The notes under the pieces were generated by a model. That model worked only from the letters and a program-made list of their open reading frames with translations. It did not search any database and was not told where the DNA came from. A DNA stretch of 64,000 nt from contig JACPFQ010000001.1 of assembly GCA_016182875.1 (NCBI GenBank), positions 85,680 through 149,679 on the forward strand, in the 5' to 3' direction. This DNA is from Candidatus Doudnabacteria bacterium. GTDB taxonomy: Bacteria; Patescibacteriota; Doudnabacteria; UBA920; O2-02-FULL-48-8. Each line of letters starts with the position of its first letter. Position 1 is the stretch's first letter. Position numbers and translations under genes: made by a program. Below are positions 3,446-44,281 of the stretch, one piece after another.

Positions 3446-3665
3446 AGCAAACGTGGTGCTTTTCCATATTGTGTTTTTCCCTCGATTAGGCTAACCGCCT
3501 TATGGCTTTCCACAAATTTTTTTGGAAAAGCATACGTGCGTTACGGCCTGTCGCATCTTTATATCTCTCCTTTCGCCACAATTTTAACGCTTCTGCCGCG
3601 GATTGTAAATAAAAATTCCGTTTTTCTTTGAATTTCAGCAAAATAGGGCCAAATTCAGGTAATAA

Positions 3666-3696
3666 AATGACGACGGGAATGTCGTTGTTTTATTAA
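3666..3696 (+). repeat. Hairpin repeat AAAATGACGAC-N7-TCGTTGTTTT, copy 1
   Basis: Near-identical element at 4957-4988. Stem GACGAC/GTCGTT followed by a T-run. Confidence 0.5.
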
Positions 3697-3794
3697 CGAA
3701 AAGTCGTTGAAAAAGGCGGCTAATTTGAATTTGTCCTCGATTCCAGTTGCTCATTTCAACACAGGTGCTATACAAAAGTCAGAAAGGAGTGGTT

Positions 3795-4988: not shown

Positions 4989-5135
4989 TGTTTTTTCAAT
5001 GATTTATATGCAGTTTGATATATTTTCAGTGCTGGTCGTTGCAAATAAAAAACACGGTAGTAAAATTAGATTGACAAAGCCATCGAGTTAACAAAGGTCG
5101 TCGACAGGCAAGCAAGGTAACGAATTTCAATTAAT

Positions 5136-5759
5136 ATGAAAATAAGACATGTCACCACTCAAGAAGCCAGGCTTGTGGGACAGGAAATTGGCATCGACTG
5201 GAACGAAGTCGACTTGGAGCAATTCCGCCGGGGAATGGAAGTCGAATTTGAGCATGGGCTTATTGACGAACAGACGAATATAACCAACGATAACCCCCTG
5301 CTGACCGGCAAAATCGCCTTAGCTCACCTAAAAGAACTGCCGGATTATTACACTCGACTCGAAAAGATGGAACAAAATCAAGAAGAGTATCAGGAAGCCG
5401 GAAAACCGCATTATTACGGCAATACCATCCGGAAGCTTTTTCTCGTTTCAGCCTTGATAATGGTTATTTCGCTTCCGTTTGCCCAGACCTCACTCAACCT
5501 TCCAGTCTCAATATCAATCGTGGCAATCCTCATTTTGGCCGCTTTTGCGGGAATAATTAGTCCGAGGCTGTTCGCAACAGTTGAGATTGATACGGTCGTG
5601 GCGGCTTTAGGATTTCTGACGTTCGAGTATTTTGGCGTTAAATCATACTCCGAGCACAATGCCTTCTTCTTCGTCATAAACCAAATTCTCGCCGCATTGT
5701 TTTTGTTTGCGGCATACTTTGGAGTAAAAAACTGGCGAGGCATGCTCACCGCCAGATAG
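5136..5759 (+). CDS. Hypothetical membrane protein: soluble N-terminal domain plus about 4 TM helices
   Basis: The N-terminus 'GQEIGIDWNEVDLEQFRRGMEVEFEHG...KIALAHLKELPDYYTRLEKME' resembles a conserved DUF (possibly DUF5661; from memory only). The C-terminal half is hydrophobic. Confidence 0.55.
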   Translation: MKIRHVTTQEARLVGQEIGIDWNEVDLEQFRRGMEVEFEHGLIDEQTNITNDNPLLTGKIALAHLKELPDYYTRLEKMEQNQEEYQEAGKPHYYGNTIRKLFLVSALIMVISLPFAQTSLNLPVSISIVAILILAAFAGIISPRLFATVEIDTVVAALGFLTFEYFGVKSYSEHNAFFFVINQILAALFLFAAYFGVKNWRGMLTAR

Positions 5760-25109: not shown

Positions 25110-25132
25110 ATTCTTAAGAATATTGGAATATC
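25100..25132. promoter_or_regulatory. 31-bp repeat ATTCTCA(C/T)ATTCT(C/T)AAGAATATTGGAAT(G/A)TC, copy 1 (promoter region of DUF1905 paralog 2)
   Basis: Four copies, at 25100, 25440, 26907 and 27041. Nested palindromes CATTC..GAATG and AATATT. Confidence 0.5.
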
Positions 25133-40434: not shown

Positions 40435-40447
40435 GGATATTAGCGCA

Positions 40448-40503
40448 ACCCTGAACTTGTTTCAGGGTCTCGTCCTGAGATGCTGAATTAAATTCAGCAT
40501 TAC
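40448..40503. repeat. Double-hairpin repeat containing TGAGATGCTGAAT-taa-ATTCAGCATT (family also at 59080-59134)
   Basis: Hairpin CCCTGAAC..GTTTCAGGG, then the conserved GAGATGCTGAAT/ATTCAGCAT palindrome, then the (A/G)CG..TTTATTA tail. Confidence 0.55.
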
Positions 40504-40601
40504 GTATTTATTAAGCCCTTGAATTATATCAGTTGCTAAAAGCATTGACAAAAGCTCCAAAAAAGAGTGTAATTATATATCACTAACCAAGGAGGTATCC
40601 G

Positions 40602-40802
40602 ATGATGAGCGCGAAGATTGCCCACGTGATTTTCACTAGGCTCAACGCCTACGCCGCCCGGCACGACTTGACCCTGCCCGAGCTTCCGAACGTGGTCAGG
40701 GACCTGGCCGACGGCGTCGAGGAAGTCATCGCAGAGGAGGCGCAAGCCCGGCCCGCCGGCGACGCGGCAATGGGACTGGCCTCGGACGAACACCGAGGCT
40801 GA
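40602..40802 (+). CDS. Hypothetical 66-aa protein, the first ORF of the GC-rich cassette-like island
   Basis: SD AAGGAGG 7 nt upstream. GC about 62%. Confidence 0.45.
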   Translation: MMSAKIAHVIFTRLNAYAARHDLTLPELPNVVRDLADGVEEVIAEEAQARPAGDAAMGLASDEHRG

Positions 40803-40824
40803 TGGACACTGGCCCGACACAAAT

Positions 40825-40869
40825 ACGCGAGGAGTGCAGGAAACAGACACCCTAATGCACTCCCCGCGT
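40825..40869 (+). terminator. Island hairpin type H, copy 1: ACGCGAGGAGTGCA...TGCACTCCCCGCGT
   Basis: 13-bp imperfect stem followed by TTCTAATTTTTCC. Homologous hairpins at 42428-42468 and 43545-43608. Confidence 0.55.
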
Positions 40870-40893
40870 TCTAATTTTTCCGCATTAGCAAAA

Positions 40894-40969
40894 ATCTAAC
40901 CATTTCGAGCGCGAAGCGCGAGAAATCGCTCTTATGAGGGATCTCTCCCGTTGGTCGAGATGGTTACAT
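40894..40969. repeat. attC-like imperfect inverted repeat ATCTAACCATTTCGAG...TCGAGATGGTTACAT
   Basis: Outer 7-mers ATCTAAC (= RYYYAAC) and GTTACAT (one mismatch to GTTRRRY), with inner 9-bp inverted repeats. Preceded by the shared motif TTTTTCCGCATTAGCAAA, also found at 42780-42797. Confidence 0.3.
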
Positions 40970-40997
40970 TCTTGGTGCTGCGAAAACTTGTTAGGAG

Positions 40998-41926
40998 GAA
41001 ACAACATGACCCTCAACCCTTATCTCATTACCAGCATGCGAGGAAAGAGAGATGGGATTGCGGGTCATTCAGAAAGAAGACTCGCAATTGTTTTGCCAAG
41101 CGGTCTGTTTGCCGGCTACCTTGGCGGTGCCGCATGTTGGGCGCTGCACAAGCTGGGCTTCGCAAATGTACCGACTACCATCGTGGGTTTTTCGGCGGGA
41201 GCGCTCACCGGCGCTTTCTGGGTTTCGGGTCAGCTTAATGACCACGTCATGAACCTGGCCCTGACCTACCACGACCGCAATCGCGACGTGGTCCGGCCCT
41301 GGCGGATCGGCAAGATCTTTGACGTTGACCGAGTCATCGACTCGATCGCCCAGGATTTCGATCTTGCCACTTTCATGGCTTCCCCGATCAACTTGTTGGT
41401 CGGGGTTGCGACAGAGGGTGGACACGGCGAACTCCTTGATGTCAAAACGGCCAAACCCGGCCCATTCGATGCGCTTAAGGCAGCGATCGCTATGCCCTGG
41501 CCCATGTTCAATCGCCACATCGAGGTCAACGGCCACCTCTATGGCGACCAGATCTTCGATCCTCTGCCGATTGAAGACATCATCAAGGCGACCAATCCCA
41601 CGGACGTCTTGATAATTGCTAATCAACCAAAGCGACCGATCGACGAATGGCGATTGAGCGGTGCCGATCTGGCGCTGGCAGCCCTGCGTCTCACCGCTCC
41701 CGAGGTGGCGATGAAAATGCTCGGGCGCAAAGCCAGACTTCGCAAAGCACTGCGTTTCTGCGAAGAGTGTCCCGACATCAACATCGGCGTCCTCTATCCG
41801 CCAAGTTCATCGCGCGGACTGACTAGAGATGCCGAATCACTTCGCCACGCCATCATCGAAACTGCCAAGGCGACAGCCGAGGCATTCGGTGAACAACTCA
41901 ACATCTCGCAAGTAGTGAGGGGATGA
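40998..41926 (+). CDS. Patatin-like phospholipase
   Basis: Oxyanion-like 'LPSGLFAGYLGG', nucleophile elbow 'GFSAGA' (G-x-S-x-G), SD AGGAGG. The ORF track start at 40934 lies inside the inverted repeat; the ATG at 40998 is preferred. Confidence 0.6.
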
Positions 41927-42414
41927 TAATGACCGACATGCTGTACCCAAGGCTCATCTTCGCGATTCACTTCACGCTTGCGGATTACGCTGCATGGCAA
42001 AAAATCACCCTGTCGGATATGACTAAGCTCGTGGAGCGTCTGGCAAGTACTCTCGAGCAGAGCTACAACGGGGCGACCAAGAAGCCTCCGAAGAACGCCA
42101 AAGCCACGATCAAACGTGTGCTCGTAGAATACACTTTGAGAGACACCTGCCGCGCCCAGACTCGAAGGCGAGCGAGGATGGGTGCAGGTCGGCGCAAGCG
42201 TGCGTTGACTGGCGGGGCAAGCAGAATCAACCTGCCGGAAATGACTACGCTTGTAGAAAGTCTTACAGGCGCTGTCGACAAGGTCTACGCACTGGAGGCA
42301 GGGACACACAGCAAAGTCGAACGGCCCGCTGCTCGAGAGGCCAAAAGTCTAAGTGGCCTCAGTGCTGCTGACATTCTCGCACACCTTGACTTTGTGCACA
42401 CGTACTTCGACTGA
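41923..42414 (+). CDS. Hypothetical 163-aa protein, coupled to the patatin gene by an ATGA overlap
   Basis: GC-rich ORF with no recognisable domain. Confidence 0.45.
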   Translation: MIMTDMLYPRLIFAIHFTLADYAAWQKITLSDMTKLVERLASTLEQSYNGATKKPPKNAKATIKRVLVEYTLRDTCRAQTRRRARMGAGRRKRALTGGASRINLPEMTTLVESLTGAVDKVYALEAGTHSKVERPAAREAKSLSGLSAADILAHLDFVHTYFD

Positions 42415-42427
42415 GCTGGGTCTTCAG

Positions 42428-42468
42428 GCGCGCGGAGTGGAAGGCTTACACAGCTTCCCTCCCCGCGT
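42428..42468 (+). repeat. Island hairpin type H, copy 2: GCGCGCGGAGTGGAAGGCT..AGCTTCCCTCCCCGCGT
   Basis: Same arm sequences as copy 1. Followed directly by SD AAAGGAGGA. Confidence 0.5.
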
Positions 42469-42493
42469 CCCAAAGCCAAAGGAGGAACCCTAA

Positions 42494-42757
42494 GTGAGCA
42501 CGATTGCAGAGGTCGTCGACTTTGTACTTCAGGCGCAGGCACGGATGAATACGGCCAAATGCGATTCGGCGTTCCGGCTCGAGTTTCATCGACGGCTAGG
42601 AGCGCTCGTCGATGATGTTCGGCGGGTCTACCACCTCAACACCCAGCCGCTGCTTAAGATGGATCGGACAAGGCAACTGCCTGACTCGTCGCAGGTCATC
42701 TTTGATCAACTCAAACAGCAGCTCGCAACCGTCCCAAACAACCCCCGTACTGAGTGA
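42494..42757 (+). CDS. Hypothetical 87-aa protein (GTG start)
   Basis: SD AAGGAGGA 7 nt upstream of GTG. Confidence 0.4.
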   Translation: MSTIAEVVDFVLQAQARMNTAKCDSAFRLEFHRRLGALVDDVRRVYHLNTQPLLKMDRTRQLPDSSQVIFDQLKQQLATVPNNPRTE

Positions 42758-42870
42758 AAGCGTCAGTACGGGGACCCGTTTTTCAGCATTAGCAAATGGT
42801 CACTGATCCCGCCTTCGCCAAGGCTTCGGCGGGCAGGCACGGATTACGGATCACAGATCACTTGGTACTG
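42743..42870. repeat. Hairpin CCCCGTACTGA..TCAGTACGGGG, motif TTTTTCAGCATTAGCAAA, and a second attC-like structured inverted repeat
   Basis: Parallels the 40825-40969 architecture: hairpin, then GCATTAGCAAA motif, then inverted repeat TGGTCACTGATCC...GGATCACAGATCAC with an inner CCCGCC..GGCGGG hairpin. Confidence 0.35.
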
Positions 42871-42923
42871 CGGAGCGAAAACCGCAACCTTTCCGCCCAC
42901 CCAGGGCGATGTTTGGAGGATCA

Positions 42924-43274
42924 ATGGAATCGTTCATGGTTACTCAGACGGCTCTGGCTGGCGTCAGTTTTATCGTCGCTGCGTTCTATCCCTACCGCTC
43001 AGGGCCCGCTTACGCGATGCTGTGGCTCACAGGCTTCGTCGCGGTCCTCGGAGTACTACTTGCCGTGGGCGTTTACTTCGATGCCCATGTTTTCTACCCC
43101 GAAGCGCTGAATGACGGCCCGCTCGGCGTGGGTATGTTCGTCGACCTGCCGGACGCGGTAGAATGGCAGATTCTGAGGGACCTGGCACTCAGCCTCAGCT
43201 TCTACTTGGCGCCTGTCACCACATTCGGGCTCGGCCGCCTGGCCCGCCGCCGCATCGGCCGTCTGACAAGCTAA
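42924..43274 (+). CDS. Hypothetical membrane protein (about 117 aa, 3 TM)
   Basis: SD GGAGGATCA-ATG. Confidence 0.4.
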   Translation: MESFMVTQTALAGVSFIVAAFYPYRSGPAYAMLWLTGFVAVLGVLLAVGVYFDAHVFYPEALNDGPLGVGMFVDLPDAVEWQILRDLALSLSFYLAPVTTFGLGRLARRRIGRLTS

Positions 43275-43301
43275 CGCAATTCAAAACGCGAGGAGTCATT
43301 C

Positions 43302-43535
43302 ATGATTTGCGACGTGACCGAAGCGGTGCAGATACTCCGCCGACTGGCGGAGAAGCTGGAAAGGGGGGACGGATTTTCGGACGATGACGGGGTCGAGCTT
43401 GGCCGGGCGAGCGAGGCAGGCACGTGCAGAAGCCCCGGCAGAACGCCGCCCAAAGACTTCGTGGGAGCGTTCAACCACGGATATTACCGCTCTCGAGATA
43501 GGCGCAACGGCCGTACGCCCGGTCCAGCCGACTGA
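43302..43535 (+). CDS. Hypothetical 77-aa protein
   Basis: SD within the half-copy of hairpin H (AAAACGCGAGGAGTCATTC-ATG). Confidence 0.4.
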   Translation: MICDVTEAVQILRRLAEKLERGDGFSDDDGVELGRASEAGTCRSPGRTPPKDFVGAFNHGYYRSRDRRNGRTPGPAD

Positions 43536-43544
43536 GAAAGCCGC

Positions 43545-43608
43545 ACGATCTAAAACGCGCGGAGTGCAGCGGACTTGAAACCCAAGCCCCGAAGCACTCC
43601 CCGCGTAT
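43545..43608 (+). terminator. Island hairpin type H, copy 3, with a T8 tract: a strong rho-independent terminator closing the island
   Basis: ACGCGCGGAGTGC...GCACTCCCCGCGT-ATTTTTTTT. Confidence 0.7.
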
Positions 43609-43632
43609 TTTTTTTATATCCTTAAGACAGGT

Positions 43633-43674
43633 CATTAGTTAACAATTTATGCGATAGCAGATTTTGTTAACAGC
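43633..43674. repeat. 42-bp direct repeat (copy 1) at the 3' boundary of gene 43674-44267, with internal inverted repeat GTTAACAA..TTGTTAAC
   Basis: CATTAGTTAACAATTTATGCGATAGCAGATTTTGTTAACAGC, about 85% identical to 44240-44281. Confidence 0.6.
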
Positions 43675-44267
43675 TAAAGACCAAACTGTTTAATCAGGTC
43701 CTTCTGGATATCGATGCTTTTGACAAGCATTATTCGAACAAATGGACGAACTTCATAAAGCTCGCTGATAAAATCAATTTCGTCTTCGCATGCATATGGG
43801 TAAACCCACACACTCTTCTGCAAGCGATAAAATCCCAGCTCTCTTAATTTTGCCCGCATAGATTCTCTCCCTTGCTTGTACTTCTCCGGAATATCAAAGA
43901 TCACAGCCCGCCACAGCTTATCCCACTTTGCAGGCTTTTTGATATGCAATTCTTCAAGTTTATATTTTAAAAACTTGTTCTGACCGTTTTTTGTCAACCG
44001 GACCACAGTCTTGCCGTCTTCCTTGGAGATACCAATAAGCTTCCTCTGTTCCAAATTTCTTAAAGAGAGGTAAACCTTACGTCGATGCCACTTCGGAATG
44101 TTTAATTCTTCAGCAATAGCCATTAAGATCAATGGACCAGCAACTGGAATTGCTATAACTCCAGCCGCTGCAATACAACCCAAAATAACCTTGGCAATTT
44201 CAGATCTTTTGCTTTTATTTTCGCTTAAATCATTCATACCGTTAGTTAACAACTTAGGCGATAGCAT
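43674..44267 (-). CDS. PaaX-like protein: N-terminal TM segment, wHTH, and a Cas2/PaaX_C-like C-terminal domain
   Basis: 'LSLRNLEQRKLIGISKEDGKTVVRLTKNGQ' (wHTH) and 'WRAVIFDIPEKYKQGRESMRAKLRELGFYRLQKSVWVYPY' (Cas2/PaaX_C fold pattern). AT-rich, unlike the adjacent island. Confidence 0.5.
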   Translation of the reverse strand: MLSPKLLTNGMNDLSENKSKRSEIAKVILGCIAAAGVIAIPVAGPLILMAIAEELNIPKWHRRKVYLSLRNLEQRKLIGISKEDGKTVVRLTKNGQNKFLKYKLEELHIKKPAKWDKLWRAVIFDIPEKYKQGRESMRAKLRELGFYRLQKSVWVYPYACEDEIDFISELYEVRPFVRIMLVKSIDIQKDLIKQFGL

Positions 44268-44281
44268 AAGTTGTTAACATC
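44240..44281. repeat. 42-bp direct repeat (copy 2) containing the start codon of gene 43674-44267
   Basis: CGTTAGTTAACAACTTAGGCGATAGCATAAGTTGTTAACATC encodes MLSPKLLTN on the minus strand. Confidence 0.6.

Follow-up and report, generated by a model that had tools for sequence, protein, structure and literature searches.

In a 64-kb stretch of a metagenome-assembled genome (MAG) of a Candidatus Doudnabacteria bacterium (contig JACPFQ010000001.1; hereafter the window, meaning all 64,000 nucleotides analyzed), the gene for a 187-aa PaaX-like protein is bracketed by two near-identical, partly palindromic repeats, one upstream (U) and one downstream (D) of the coding region. The palindrome-gene-palindrome arrangement is the standard module of a large family in Patescibacteria, with arms that are private to each paralogue. 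With moderate confidence, we read U and D as paired cognate operators of an autoregulated, probably membrane-tethered protein of the PaaX type. Patescibacteria (candidate phyla radiation, CPR) have few recognizable transcription factors and their gene regulation is almost unstudied. The family described here consists of short, probably membrane-anchored proteins of PaaX/Cas2 fold, each with private palindromes of ~36 bp around its own gene. If the palindromes are binding sites, they would provide hundreds of natural, orthogonal protein-operator pairs, and local regulons could be read directly from uncultured genomes; several of the regulon candidates encode secreted or membrane proteins.

The Repeat Pair and the Start of the Gene

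The two direct repeat copies (Table 1) comprise 38 nt, are 87% identical and start 607 nt apart, which is also the distance between the centers of U and D. Each copy is an imperfect palindrome containing the inverted repeat GTTAACAA-N18-TTGTTAAC. On the gene strand the U palindrome (44245-44278) has the sequence GTTAACAACTTATGCTATCGCCTAAGTTGTTAAC; U lies 12 nt past the rseP stop codon and 4-7 nt ahead of an ATG at 44237. The D palindrome (43638-43671; gene-strand sequence GTTAACAAAATCTGCTATCGCATAAATTGTTAAC) is degenerate and abuts the stop codon of the PaaX-like gene. No match was obtained in any of 100 dinucleotide-preserving shuffles and no third copy was found in the window with up to 3 mismatches allowed; the repeat and the open reading frame (ORF) are therefore real and far beyond chance. 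An earlier note on this DNA had described two direct repeats of 42 nt, an internal inverted repeat in each copy and a gene at 43674-44267 bracketed by them. All three features were borne out, the ORF lying on the minus strand, with an identity of ~83% over the 42 nt by our own count on the sequence.

The true start of the gene is almost certainly the ATG at 44237, judging from the sequences compared. This is the start of the 187-aa product in the NCBI annotation, and the homologue starts all lie near the equivalent position. In the orthologous locus L087 the ATG internal to the palindrome is out of frame, in L088 there is no such ATG, and the L106 protein begins with MNKTD 8 nt past the L106 palindrome. 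A start at 44237 lies outside the repeat, and the repeat therefore does not duplicate the coding 5' end. The proposal in the earlier note that the gene starts inside the second repeat copy, making the first a displaced duplicate of the gene start, is thus replaced by one in which the repeat stands just upstream of the coding region.

The Encoded Protein

The N-terminal segment VILGCIAAAGVIAIPVAGPLILMAIA comprises 26 uncharged, hydrophobic residues with a conserved proline and with basic residues on both sides, and it probably forms a helix which anchors the protein in the membrane. The flanking charges are equal (+3.0 vs +3.0), and the positive-inside rule gives an ambiguous topology. Profile matches to the winged helix which follows were weak; its support comes from an AlphaFold2 (AF2) model, built from 53 homologues with a predicted local distance difference test score (pLDDT) of 87.7, and from fold matches. 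The model shows the N-terminal helix, the winged helix and a beta-alpha-beta-beta-alpha-beta domain. Foldseek placed E. coli PaaX (8A39, E 3.9e-4) first among PDB matches to the model, followed by Rv0674 (3KFW), 3L09, the PadR-like and AspA winged helices, and Cas2 chains.

With respect to the C-terminal domain, residues 113-186 match PaaX_M (PF20803) with 74.1 bits against a gathering cut-off of 24 (E 9.7e-21), and PF20803 was present in 57 of 57 homologues. No match to PaaX_C was obtained in the Pfam search, the protein ending at residue 187/197, and the score against the PaaX equivalog model TIGR02277 (27.9 bits) lay below its cut-off of 264.55. Of the architecture given in the earlier note, a transmembrane segment, a winged helix-turn-helix and a Cas2/PaaX_C-like domain, the Cas2-like part holds and the PaaX_C part does not, the domain being PaaX_M. 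Cas2 models scored below threshold (PF09827, 18.2 vs 23.8 bits; TIGR01573, 22.6 vs 24.5 bits), a PADLOC Cas2 match (2.3e-5) was limited to beta1-alpha1, and a sequence comparison of the Cas2-like domain alone with the PDB gave no useful alignment. Residues W105, D106, D115 (in FDIP), S142, P147 and C150 are invariant across the homologues and the motif PYxCEDE is nearly so; the correspondence of D115 to the catalytic Asp of Cas2 is taken solely from the Pfam, NCBIfam and PADLOC match ranges. Profile searches found no transposase, integrase or HUH domain in the protein, and neither a Pfam match to Y1_Tnp nor, in the invariant columns, a conserved His-hydrophobic-His motif was present. The GC content of the gene is 39.9%, compared with 46.8% for the window.

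The Bracket Is Kept Across the Family

A genome scan yielded 428 confirmed relatives, of which 80 were kept, nearly all titled as Patescibacteria-group MAGs and several coming from genomes with multiple paralogues. Locus analysis was carried out on 79 homologous loci, in which gene starts were set heuristically. Among the loci examined the family occurs almost only in the CPR, and an exhaustive profile search gave 1,176 clusters at 50% identity (E<=1e-30), typically of 180-195 aa. No description of the family or of its palindromes was found in the searchable literature.

With the stricter threshold, an 18-nt-arm palindrome within 150 nt of the gene, an upstream palindrome was present in 47 of the 79 loci, a downstream palindrome in 39 and both in 32. 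Only 40 palindromes of this quality occurred in the remaining ~447 kb, an enrichment of ~30-fold at the gene. With a relaxed threshold the corresponding figures were 56, 49 and 42 of 79. The pairing is specific to the locus: U and D are 86% identical within a locus and 46% identical between loci. The centers of D lie 16-91 nt past the stop codon and the U-D distance ranges from 591 to 795 nt. The most frequent cores were GCATATGC (n=49), GCGATCGC (n=13) and GCAATTGC (n=8), and the asymmetric core of the window, GCTATCGC, also occurs. Around the core lie an A/T-rich spacer and then the outer arms, often TTGAC-like, which vary by locus, as in TTAGTCAA and TGCTCGTAAT. L099, which holds a paralogue from the same organism, carries a different, private palindrome pair (GGTACCTATTTG...) spaced 642 nt apart; no paralogue of the gene was found within the window. 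A metagenome scan for the window-type palindrome gave no match, and a palindrome-first metagenome search with TTAGTCAA-N6-GCATATGC-N6-TTGACTAA returned 10 loci, 7 of which adjoin a family gene and 3 of which are orphans.

Taken alone, the geometry in the window would speak for a chance similarity or a one-off tandem-duplication scar of this genome, the latter having been offered in the earlier note. Both are excluded, as no shuffle gave any match and the same bracket, built from other sequences, recurs in most of the 79 homologous loci and in same-site orthologues with 64-80% aa identity. Orthologues at one chromosomal site were also observed to alter their arms jointly in U and D, the arm being GTTAACA in the window, L087 and L088 and TTGAC in L007. 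In L106, where only the U copy falls within the contig, the arm type is GCGAACA, and the asymmetric core CTGCTATCGCCTAA keeps the same orientation throughout the GTTAACA/GCGAACA group. A common binding partner would produce such concerted change; target-site duplication would not.

Nature of the Palindromic Site

Counted from the center, symmetry was 81-98% at positions 1-4 and 10-18, 63-76% at positions 5-9 and near chance beyond 18; the sets were chosen for symmetry, which inflates these absolute values but not the positional profile. The symmetry is a property of the DNA, and its bipartite form points to two places of protein contact, spaced by about one helical turn, and not to a uniform stem. 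That the palindromes act instead as RNA hairpins in the transcript, serving as 5'/3' stabilizers, as terminators or as sites processed by the Cas2-like domain, is highly improbable. RNase activity has been reported for Cas2 and VapD relatives, stems of up to 18 bp stand at both ends of the coding region, and any read-through from rseP into the gene has to transcribe window U. Against this, on the sense strand G:T mismatches are as frequent as A:C mismatches (51 v 48), so that an RNA wobble signature is absent, the loops have palindromic tetranucleotides, the symmetry is bipartite, and in ~30% of loci U lies at -35, ahead of the transcript. The stems are only 33% GC, 24% of D copies have 5 or more T among the 8 nt that follow, compared with 16-25% on control sides, and no Rfam family matched the palindromes. 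Identity as intrinsic terminators was rejected on the same GC and T-run figures together with a terminator scan which found none at the window repeats. Nor is D needed for termination in the window, since an intrinsic terminator (43551-43615) follows it.

Sequences resembling a -10 hexamer were enriched 4.4-fold at +31 to +35 from the palindrome center, downstream of U only (17/56), which places the promoter-proximal arm (TTGACx) at -35. In this part of the family the palindrome overlaps the promoter. In many loci (L017, L032, L084, L026/L030 and others) the hexamer lies ~6 nt ahead of the annotated ATG, pointing to leaderless or near-leaderless mRNAs in Patescibacteria members of the family. 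No -10 enrichment was found at D copies, and the gene after D runs in the same direction in 19 loci and is convergent in another 19. As a general rule, D as the operator of the next gene was rejected on these two observations, and the even split in orientation makes D a feature of the module.

Twelve extra cognate copies, all intergenic, were found in 6 of 63 loci scanned. Some of them lie ahead of genes whose products are secreted or membrane proteins, and others form stacks upstream of the family gene. In the stacked loci, two or three cognate palindromes lie 100-180 nt apart upstream of the family gene (Table 1). In L024 and L073 cognate copies stand before neighboring genes for small secreted proteins and for a secreted protein of ~800 aa.

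Gain, Loss and Duplication of the Unit

At the rseP site the gene was present in 5 loci and lacking in 6 other Doudnabacteria. In a neighbor-joining tree of two proteins (Frr+RseP) from nine loci, the gene-less L101 is sister to the gene-bearing L088. L101 carries exactly one palindrome, TTGAGCATTCTATGCTATCGCCTCAAATGCTCAA, located 15 nt past the rseP stop codon, after which comes the GC hairpin that is also present in L088. This solo palindrome keeps the same core (TGCTATCGCC), and removal of the gene together with one repeat would leave just such a structure. A solo palindrome of the family type is present at the rseP site of L105 as well. Duplication of the unit was observed in a single MAG, JAQTLF01, where contigs 2 and 29 (L026 and L030), which have similar coverage, are 97.1% identical over exactly 784 nt. 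The duplicate runs from 14 nt before U to 4 nt past D and its flanks are unrelated. The copies show 15 coding differences, 11 of them at third codon positions, and in the L030 copy residue 118 is a nonsense codon (CAA to TAA). The copies do not differ in the first 346 nt; the 23 differences in total all lie in the remaining 438 nt, a clustering which suggests partial gene conversion. With near-identical palindromic repeats at both ends, the module is thus both duplicated and deleted as a block, and the breakpoints lie at the palindromes. These events may be passive, by recombination or slippage at the repeats, or may be catalyzed.

The earlier note had compared the repeats with attL/attR-type junctions of an excisable cassette. 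Gain and loss of the block over evolutionary time (L101, JAQTLF01) agree with this in part; active excision in the present organism is not supported. Six contigs with the exact gene were 100% identical to the window across both repeats, every public contig with the exact RseP also carried the gene, and no empty-site or excision variant was present in public assemblies of this organism. No recombinase or integrase was found among the called neighbors of the gene. On the plus strand the predicted empty-site junction is CTTAAGACAGGTCA-[repeat]-TCAAGATTTAAATCAGAAAATCC and the predicted circle junction ATCATTCATACCG-[repeat]-GCTAAAGACCAAACTG.

We consider it unlikely that the module is a minimal mobile cassette whose terminal palindromes are recombination or cleavage sites, cut and joined by the encoded protein or by a recruited host enzyme. 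The duplicate in JAQTLF01 which ends at the palindromes, the solo palindromes of L101 and L105 and the patchy presence of the gene at the rseP site all favor such a cassette. So do the independence of the bracket from the orientation of its neighbors, the variable DNA adjoining D, the several paralogues per genome, and the invariant Cas2-type Asp with the acidic PYxCEDE motif. However, the identity of the orthologues (80/75/64%) tracks that of Frr+RseP (78/65/67%), which indicates vertical descent with losses and speaks against recent transfer. The window holds just 2 repeat copies, the empty-site variant is missing from public assemblies, only 1 match to relatives was obtained in 2.9 million viral contigs, and the profile searches show no transposase, integrase or HUH domain. 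The arms of U and D change in concert, unlike a target-site duplication, and no such duplication is visible in L026/L030. Moreover, palindromes are generic hot spots of illegitimate recombination, and breakpoints at them therefore need no dedicated enzyme. It is decidedly unlikely that the unit is an autonomous minimal mobile element of Patescibacteria whose protein cleaves and rejoins its own terminal palindromes or directs this. Were the unit to move itself, it would be a new minimal mobile element on the Cas2 fold and would bear on the origin of the association between Cas2 and palindromic repeats; an autonomous element would represent a new class of self-mobilizing cassette, with a free-living Cas2 relative already pairing the Cas2 fold with palindromic repeats of ~36 bp.

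In four related Moraniibacteriota-type contigs (L040, L065, L070, L074) the position of the cassette shifts relative to shared flanking blocks, the block order being W-X-cas-A in L040, W-A-cas-B in L074 and X-cas-...-B in L065. In the four, the cassette and its flanks have diverged to a similar degree. The arrangement in L040, L065 and L074 could reflect rearrangement or movement around the module and is too complex to interpret.

Proposed Paired Cognate Operators

We infer that the encoded protein binds the palindromes, the dyad-symmetric DNA site of ~34-36 bp and its second copy being the cognate sites of the protein encoded between them. E. coli PaaX is an autorepressor which binds the widely spaced inverted repeat TGATTC-N27-GAATCA (PMC9493321); the inverted repeat of the window, with arms 18 nt apart, is likewise long and widely spaced, and its binding is predicted. 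Cognate palindromes with widely spaced arms appear, from their sequences, to lie at the promoter in ~30% of loci, as would a PaaX-type site at its own promoter. The extra intergenic copies and the orphan sites would agree with a protein that acts in trans. In the proposed mechanism a dimer, joined by the Cas2-like domain, would touch both the central core of the palindrome and its outer arms with its winged helices. With U on or against the promoter of the gene, binding would lead to autorepression. In the window, U would also have to block or gate read-through from rseP, since it fills the gap between the rseP stop codon (44292) and the start codon of the gene. The promoter-less D would cooperate with U, either by looping or as a roadblock or insulator against convergent transcription. 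The earlier note had allowed that the palindrome might be only the gene's own operator, duplicated by chance; operator is the best-supported function, and the duplication is a rule of the family rather than an accident.

Several observations weigh against this reading. A scan found no sigma-70 promoter at window U, and an 8-of-12 promoter candidate recognized there by eye is not conserved in the orthologues, so that this orthologue group has no convincing promoter at U. The solo palindromes of L101 and L105, symmetric without an adjacent gene, and the block duplication in JAQTLF01 fit a mobile element at least equally well, and in some loci the palindromy is near perfect over the full 36 bp, more than most operators require. 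No helical phasing was found in the U-D distances (Rayleigh p 0.5-0.99). When the recognition helix was compared with half-site distance, all protein regions correlated with DNA distance (rho 0.33-0.44), and with the rest of the protein controlled for, the partial rho was 0.23 for the helix vs 0.31 for the Cas2 domain. With equal charges on its flanks, the hydrophobic N-terminus could be a secretion signal; an exported protein would be incompatible with a cytoplasmic DNA binder. Finally, the link between protein and site is one of co-occurrence, and the role of D is arrived at indirectly.

The hydrophobic anchor, conserved family-wide, would also suit a protein which tethers DNA to the membrane or binds a centromere-like site without acting on transcription, each paralogue anchoring its own locus through the flanking sites. 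We regard this as very unlikely. The winged helix is as similar to the centromere binders AspA and TubR as to repressors, some loci have arrays of 3-4 cognate sites, and D has no promoter. However, these fold similarities are generic to winged helices (E ~0.02-0.1), no partner ATPase was present in the loci examined, and the overlap of U with the promoter speaks for a role that is, at the least, transcriptional.

Comparison with Known Systems

PaaX of E. coli and Pseudomonas (8A39, 3L09, 3KFW) and the window protein both have an N-terminal winged helix followed by the Cas2-like middle domain PF20803. Unlike PaaX, the window protein is without the ligand-binding domain PaaX_C, retains the Cas2-like Asp and has the hydrophobic N-terminal anchor; no paa genes lie nearby, the neighbors of the gene being frr, rseP, proS and mreBCD. 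A second putative operator copy past the stop codon, a distribution almost confined to Patescibacteria and several paralogues per genome also set the family apart from PaaX. Nucleases of the Cas2/VapD type have the same ferredoxin fold as the C-terminal domain, with weak matches over beta1-alpha1 that include the Asp of FDIP, and the partly palindromic repeats of ~36 bp around the window gene superficially recall a repeat-spacer-repeat geometry. In contrast to Cas2, the 'spacer' here is a 570-bp gene and the Cas2-like domain is joined to a winged helix and a putative membrane anchor. Pfam found no cas1 among the neighbors, and no CRISPR-like repeated 20-mers were present in the window.

RAYT/REP and IS200/IS605 systems resemble the module in having a single-copy gene with cognate palindromes on either side, in palindromes private to each family and in a ferredoxin-like catalytic domain. 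However, the window protein has no HUH/Y1 motif, and REP palindromes are dispersed in tens to hundreds, compared with the 2 in 64 kb and the 12 extra cognate copies in all reported here. Integron attC cassettes are likewise short, bounded by imperfect palindromes, gained and lost as blocks, and leave a single site at the empty position. In contrast to attC, the window arms GTTAACA/TGTTAAC do not fit RYYYAAC/GTTRRRY, the arms vary by locus and no IntI is found among the called neighbors; the module has its own promoter, forms no long arrays and has vertically inherited orthologues. Islands of the attL/attR type carry a recombinase between their direct repeats, and none was found among the neighbors of the window gene.

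The multi-operator repressor systems lac O1/O2, gal OE/OI and deo O1/O2 (~600 bp apart) also have two near-identical dyad sites, one of them at the promoter. As in such repressors, the dyad sites of the module lie ~600-800 bp apart around the regulated gene. The module differs in that its distances are not helically phased, and looping would be our proposal for it. To our knowledge, a second site which brackets the regulator's own gene as a family rule has not been described for the lac, gal or deo systems.

Genomic Context

The earlier note had placed the gene at the end of a GC-rich island, itself AT-rich and pointing the opposite way. The gene is AT-rich, but the supposed island consists mostly of core genes on the same strand. 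The order holB, BNR protein, frr, rseP, PaaX-like gene, variable segment, proS, mreBCD, PBP2 is common to the window, L087, L088 and L007, and the core genes of this order, including proS, mreBCD and PBP2, are all on the strand of the PaaX-like gene. Only ~40.5-43.63 kb is variable, with 56.7% GC, plus-strand genes and a patatin-like gene among them. Coordinates of the features are collected in Table 1.

Table 1. Location of the module, its parts and related features (window coordinates unless a locus is named; residues in 187-aa numbering).
Feature	Location	Strand	Remark
PaaX-like protein gene, 187 aa	43674..44237	-	probable start ATG 44237; longest ORF to 44267
Upstream (U) repeat copy	44242..44279	.	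proposed primary operator
Downstream (D) repeat copy	43635..43672	.	proposed second, promoter-less operator
Hydrophobic segment, residues 4-40	44118..44228	-	putative membrane anchor
Winged helix-turn-helix, residues 45-95	43953..44105	-	predicted helix 49-64, beta-hairpin wing 68-81, helix 83-95
Cas2-like domain, residues 105-187, beta-alpha-beta-beta-alpha-beta	43677..43925	-	from profiles, model and conservation
GC-rich hairpin + T-run, outside module	43551..43615	+	ACGCGCGGAGTGC...GCACTCCCCGCG TATTTTTTTT; ends convergent plus-strand genes
Hairpin copies, window	40821-40878, 42427-42468, 43551-43615	+	terminator-like
Hairpin copies, other loci	L088 2443-2483; L087 ~5060-5150; L007 ~3640-3720; L101 ~5225-5265		
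Gap from rseP or D to proS	window 40435-43634; L087 4990-5600; L088 2420-3750; L007 3615-4004; L101 5120-6115; L104 5123-6831		
JAQTLF01 unit copies	L026 2819-3602; L030 2819-3602		
Stacked palindrome loci	L034 2531, 2657, 2836, 3724; L038 353, 492, 622, 1502; L090 1008, 1108		
20-mer ATTCTCACATTCTCAAGAAT	25439, 26906, 27040		related palindrome centered at 25115

Between rseP (or the D palindrome) and proS lies a hot spot of variable genes, most of which are convergent with the core genes. In L107 it is empty, the gap measuring 6 nt, and at the other extreme it holds four or five small ORFs. Its GC content is 46%-56% where measured, and the segments share no homology except for a GC-rich hairpin. 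This hairpin, which is conserved beside the D palindrome in orthologous loci, there with different cargo, has the form ACGCG(A/C)GGAGTG-loop-C(A)CTCCCCGCGT followed by a T-run and occurs three times in the 3-kb variable segment of the window. Copies 1 and 3 form direct repeats around ~2.7 kb which include the patatin-like gene, and the hairpin of L088 is 95% identical over 42 nt to the middle copy of the window. From its sequence, the variable segment looks like a set of stacked modules, each ending in a hairpin. At 40540-40802 (plus strand), a strong consensus promoter (TTGACA-17-TAATTAT) and an AAGGAGG ribosome-binding site precede a 66-aa ORF at 40603-40802, which is divergent from proS and was absent from the ORF list behind the island description in the earlier note.

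Elsewhere in the window, between 25100 and 27060, a partly palindromic motif occurs 3-4 times in or near an AT-rich stretch at 26-31 kb (36% GC; Table 1). With its ORFs of 115, 350, 105 and 198 aa, this stretch resembles a foreign island more closely than does the region which had been flagged as one.

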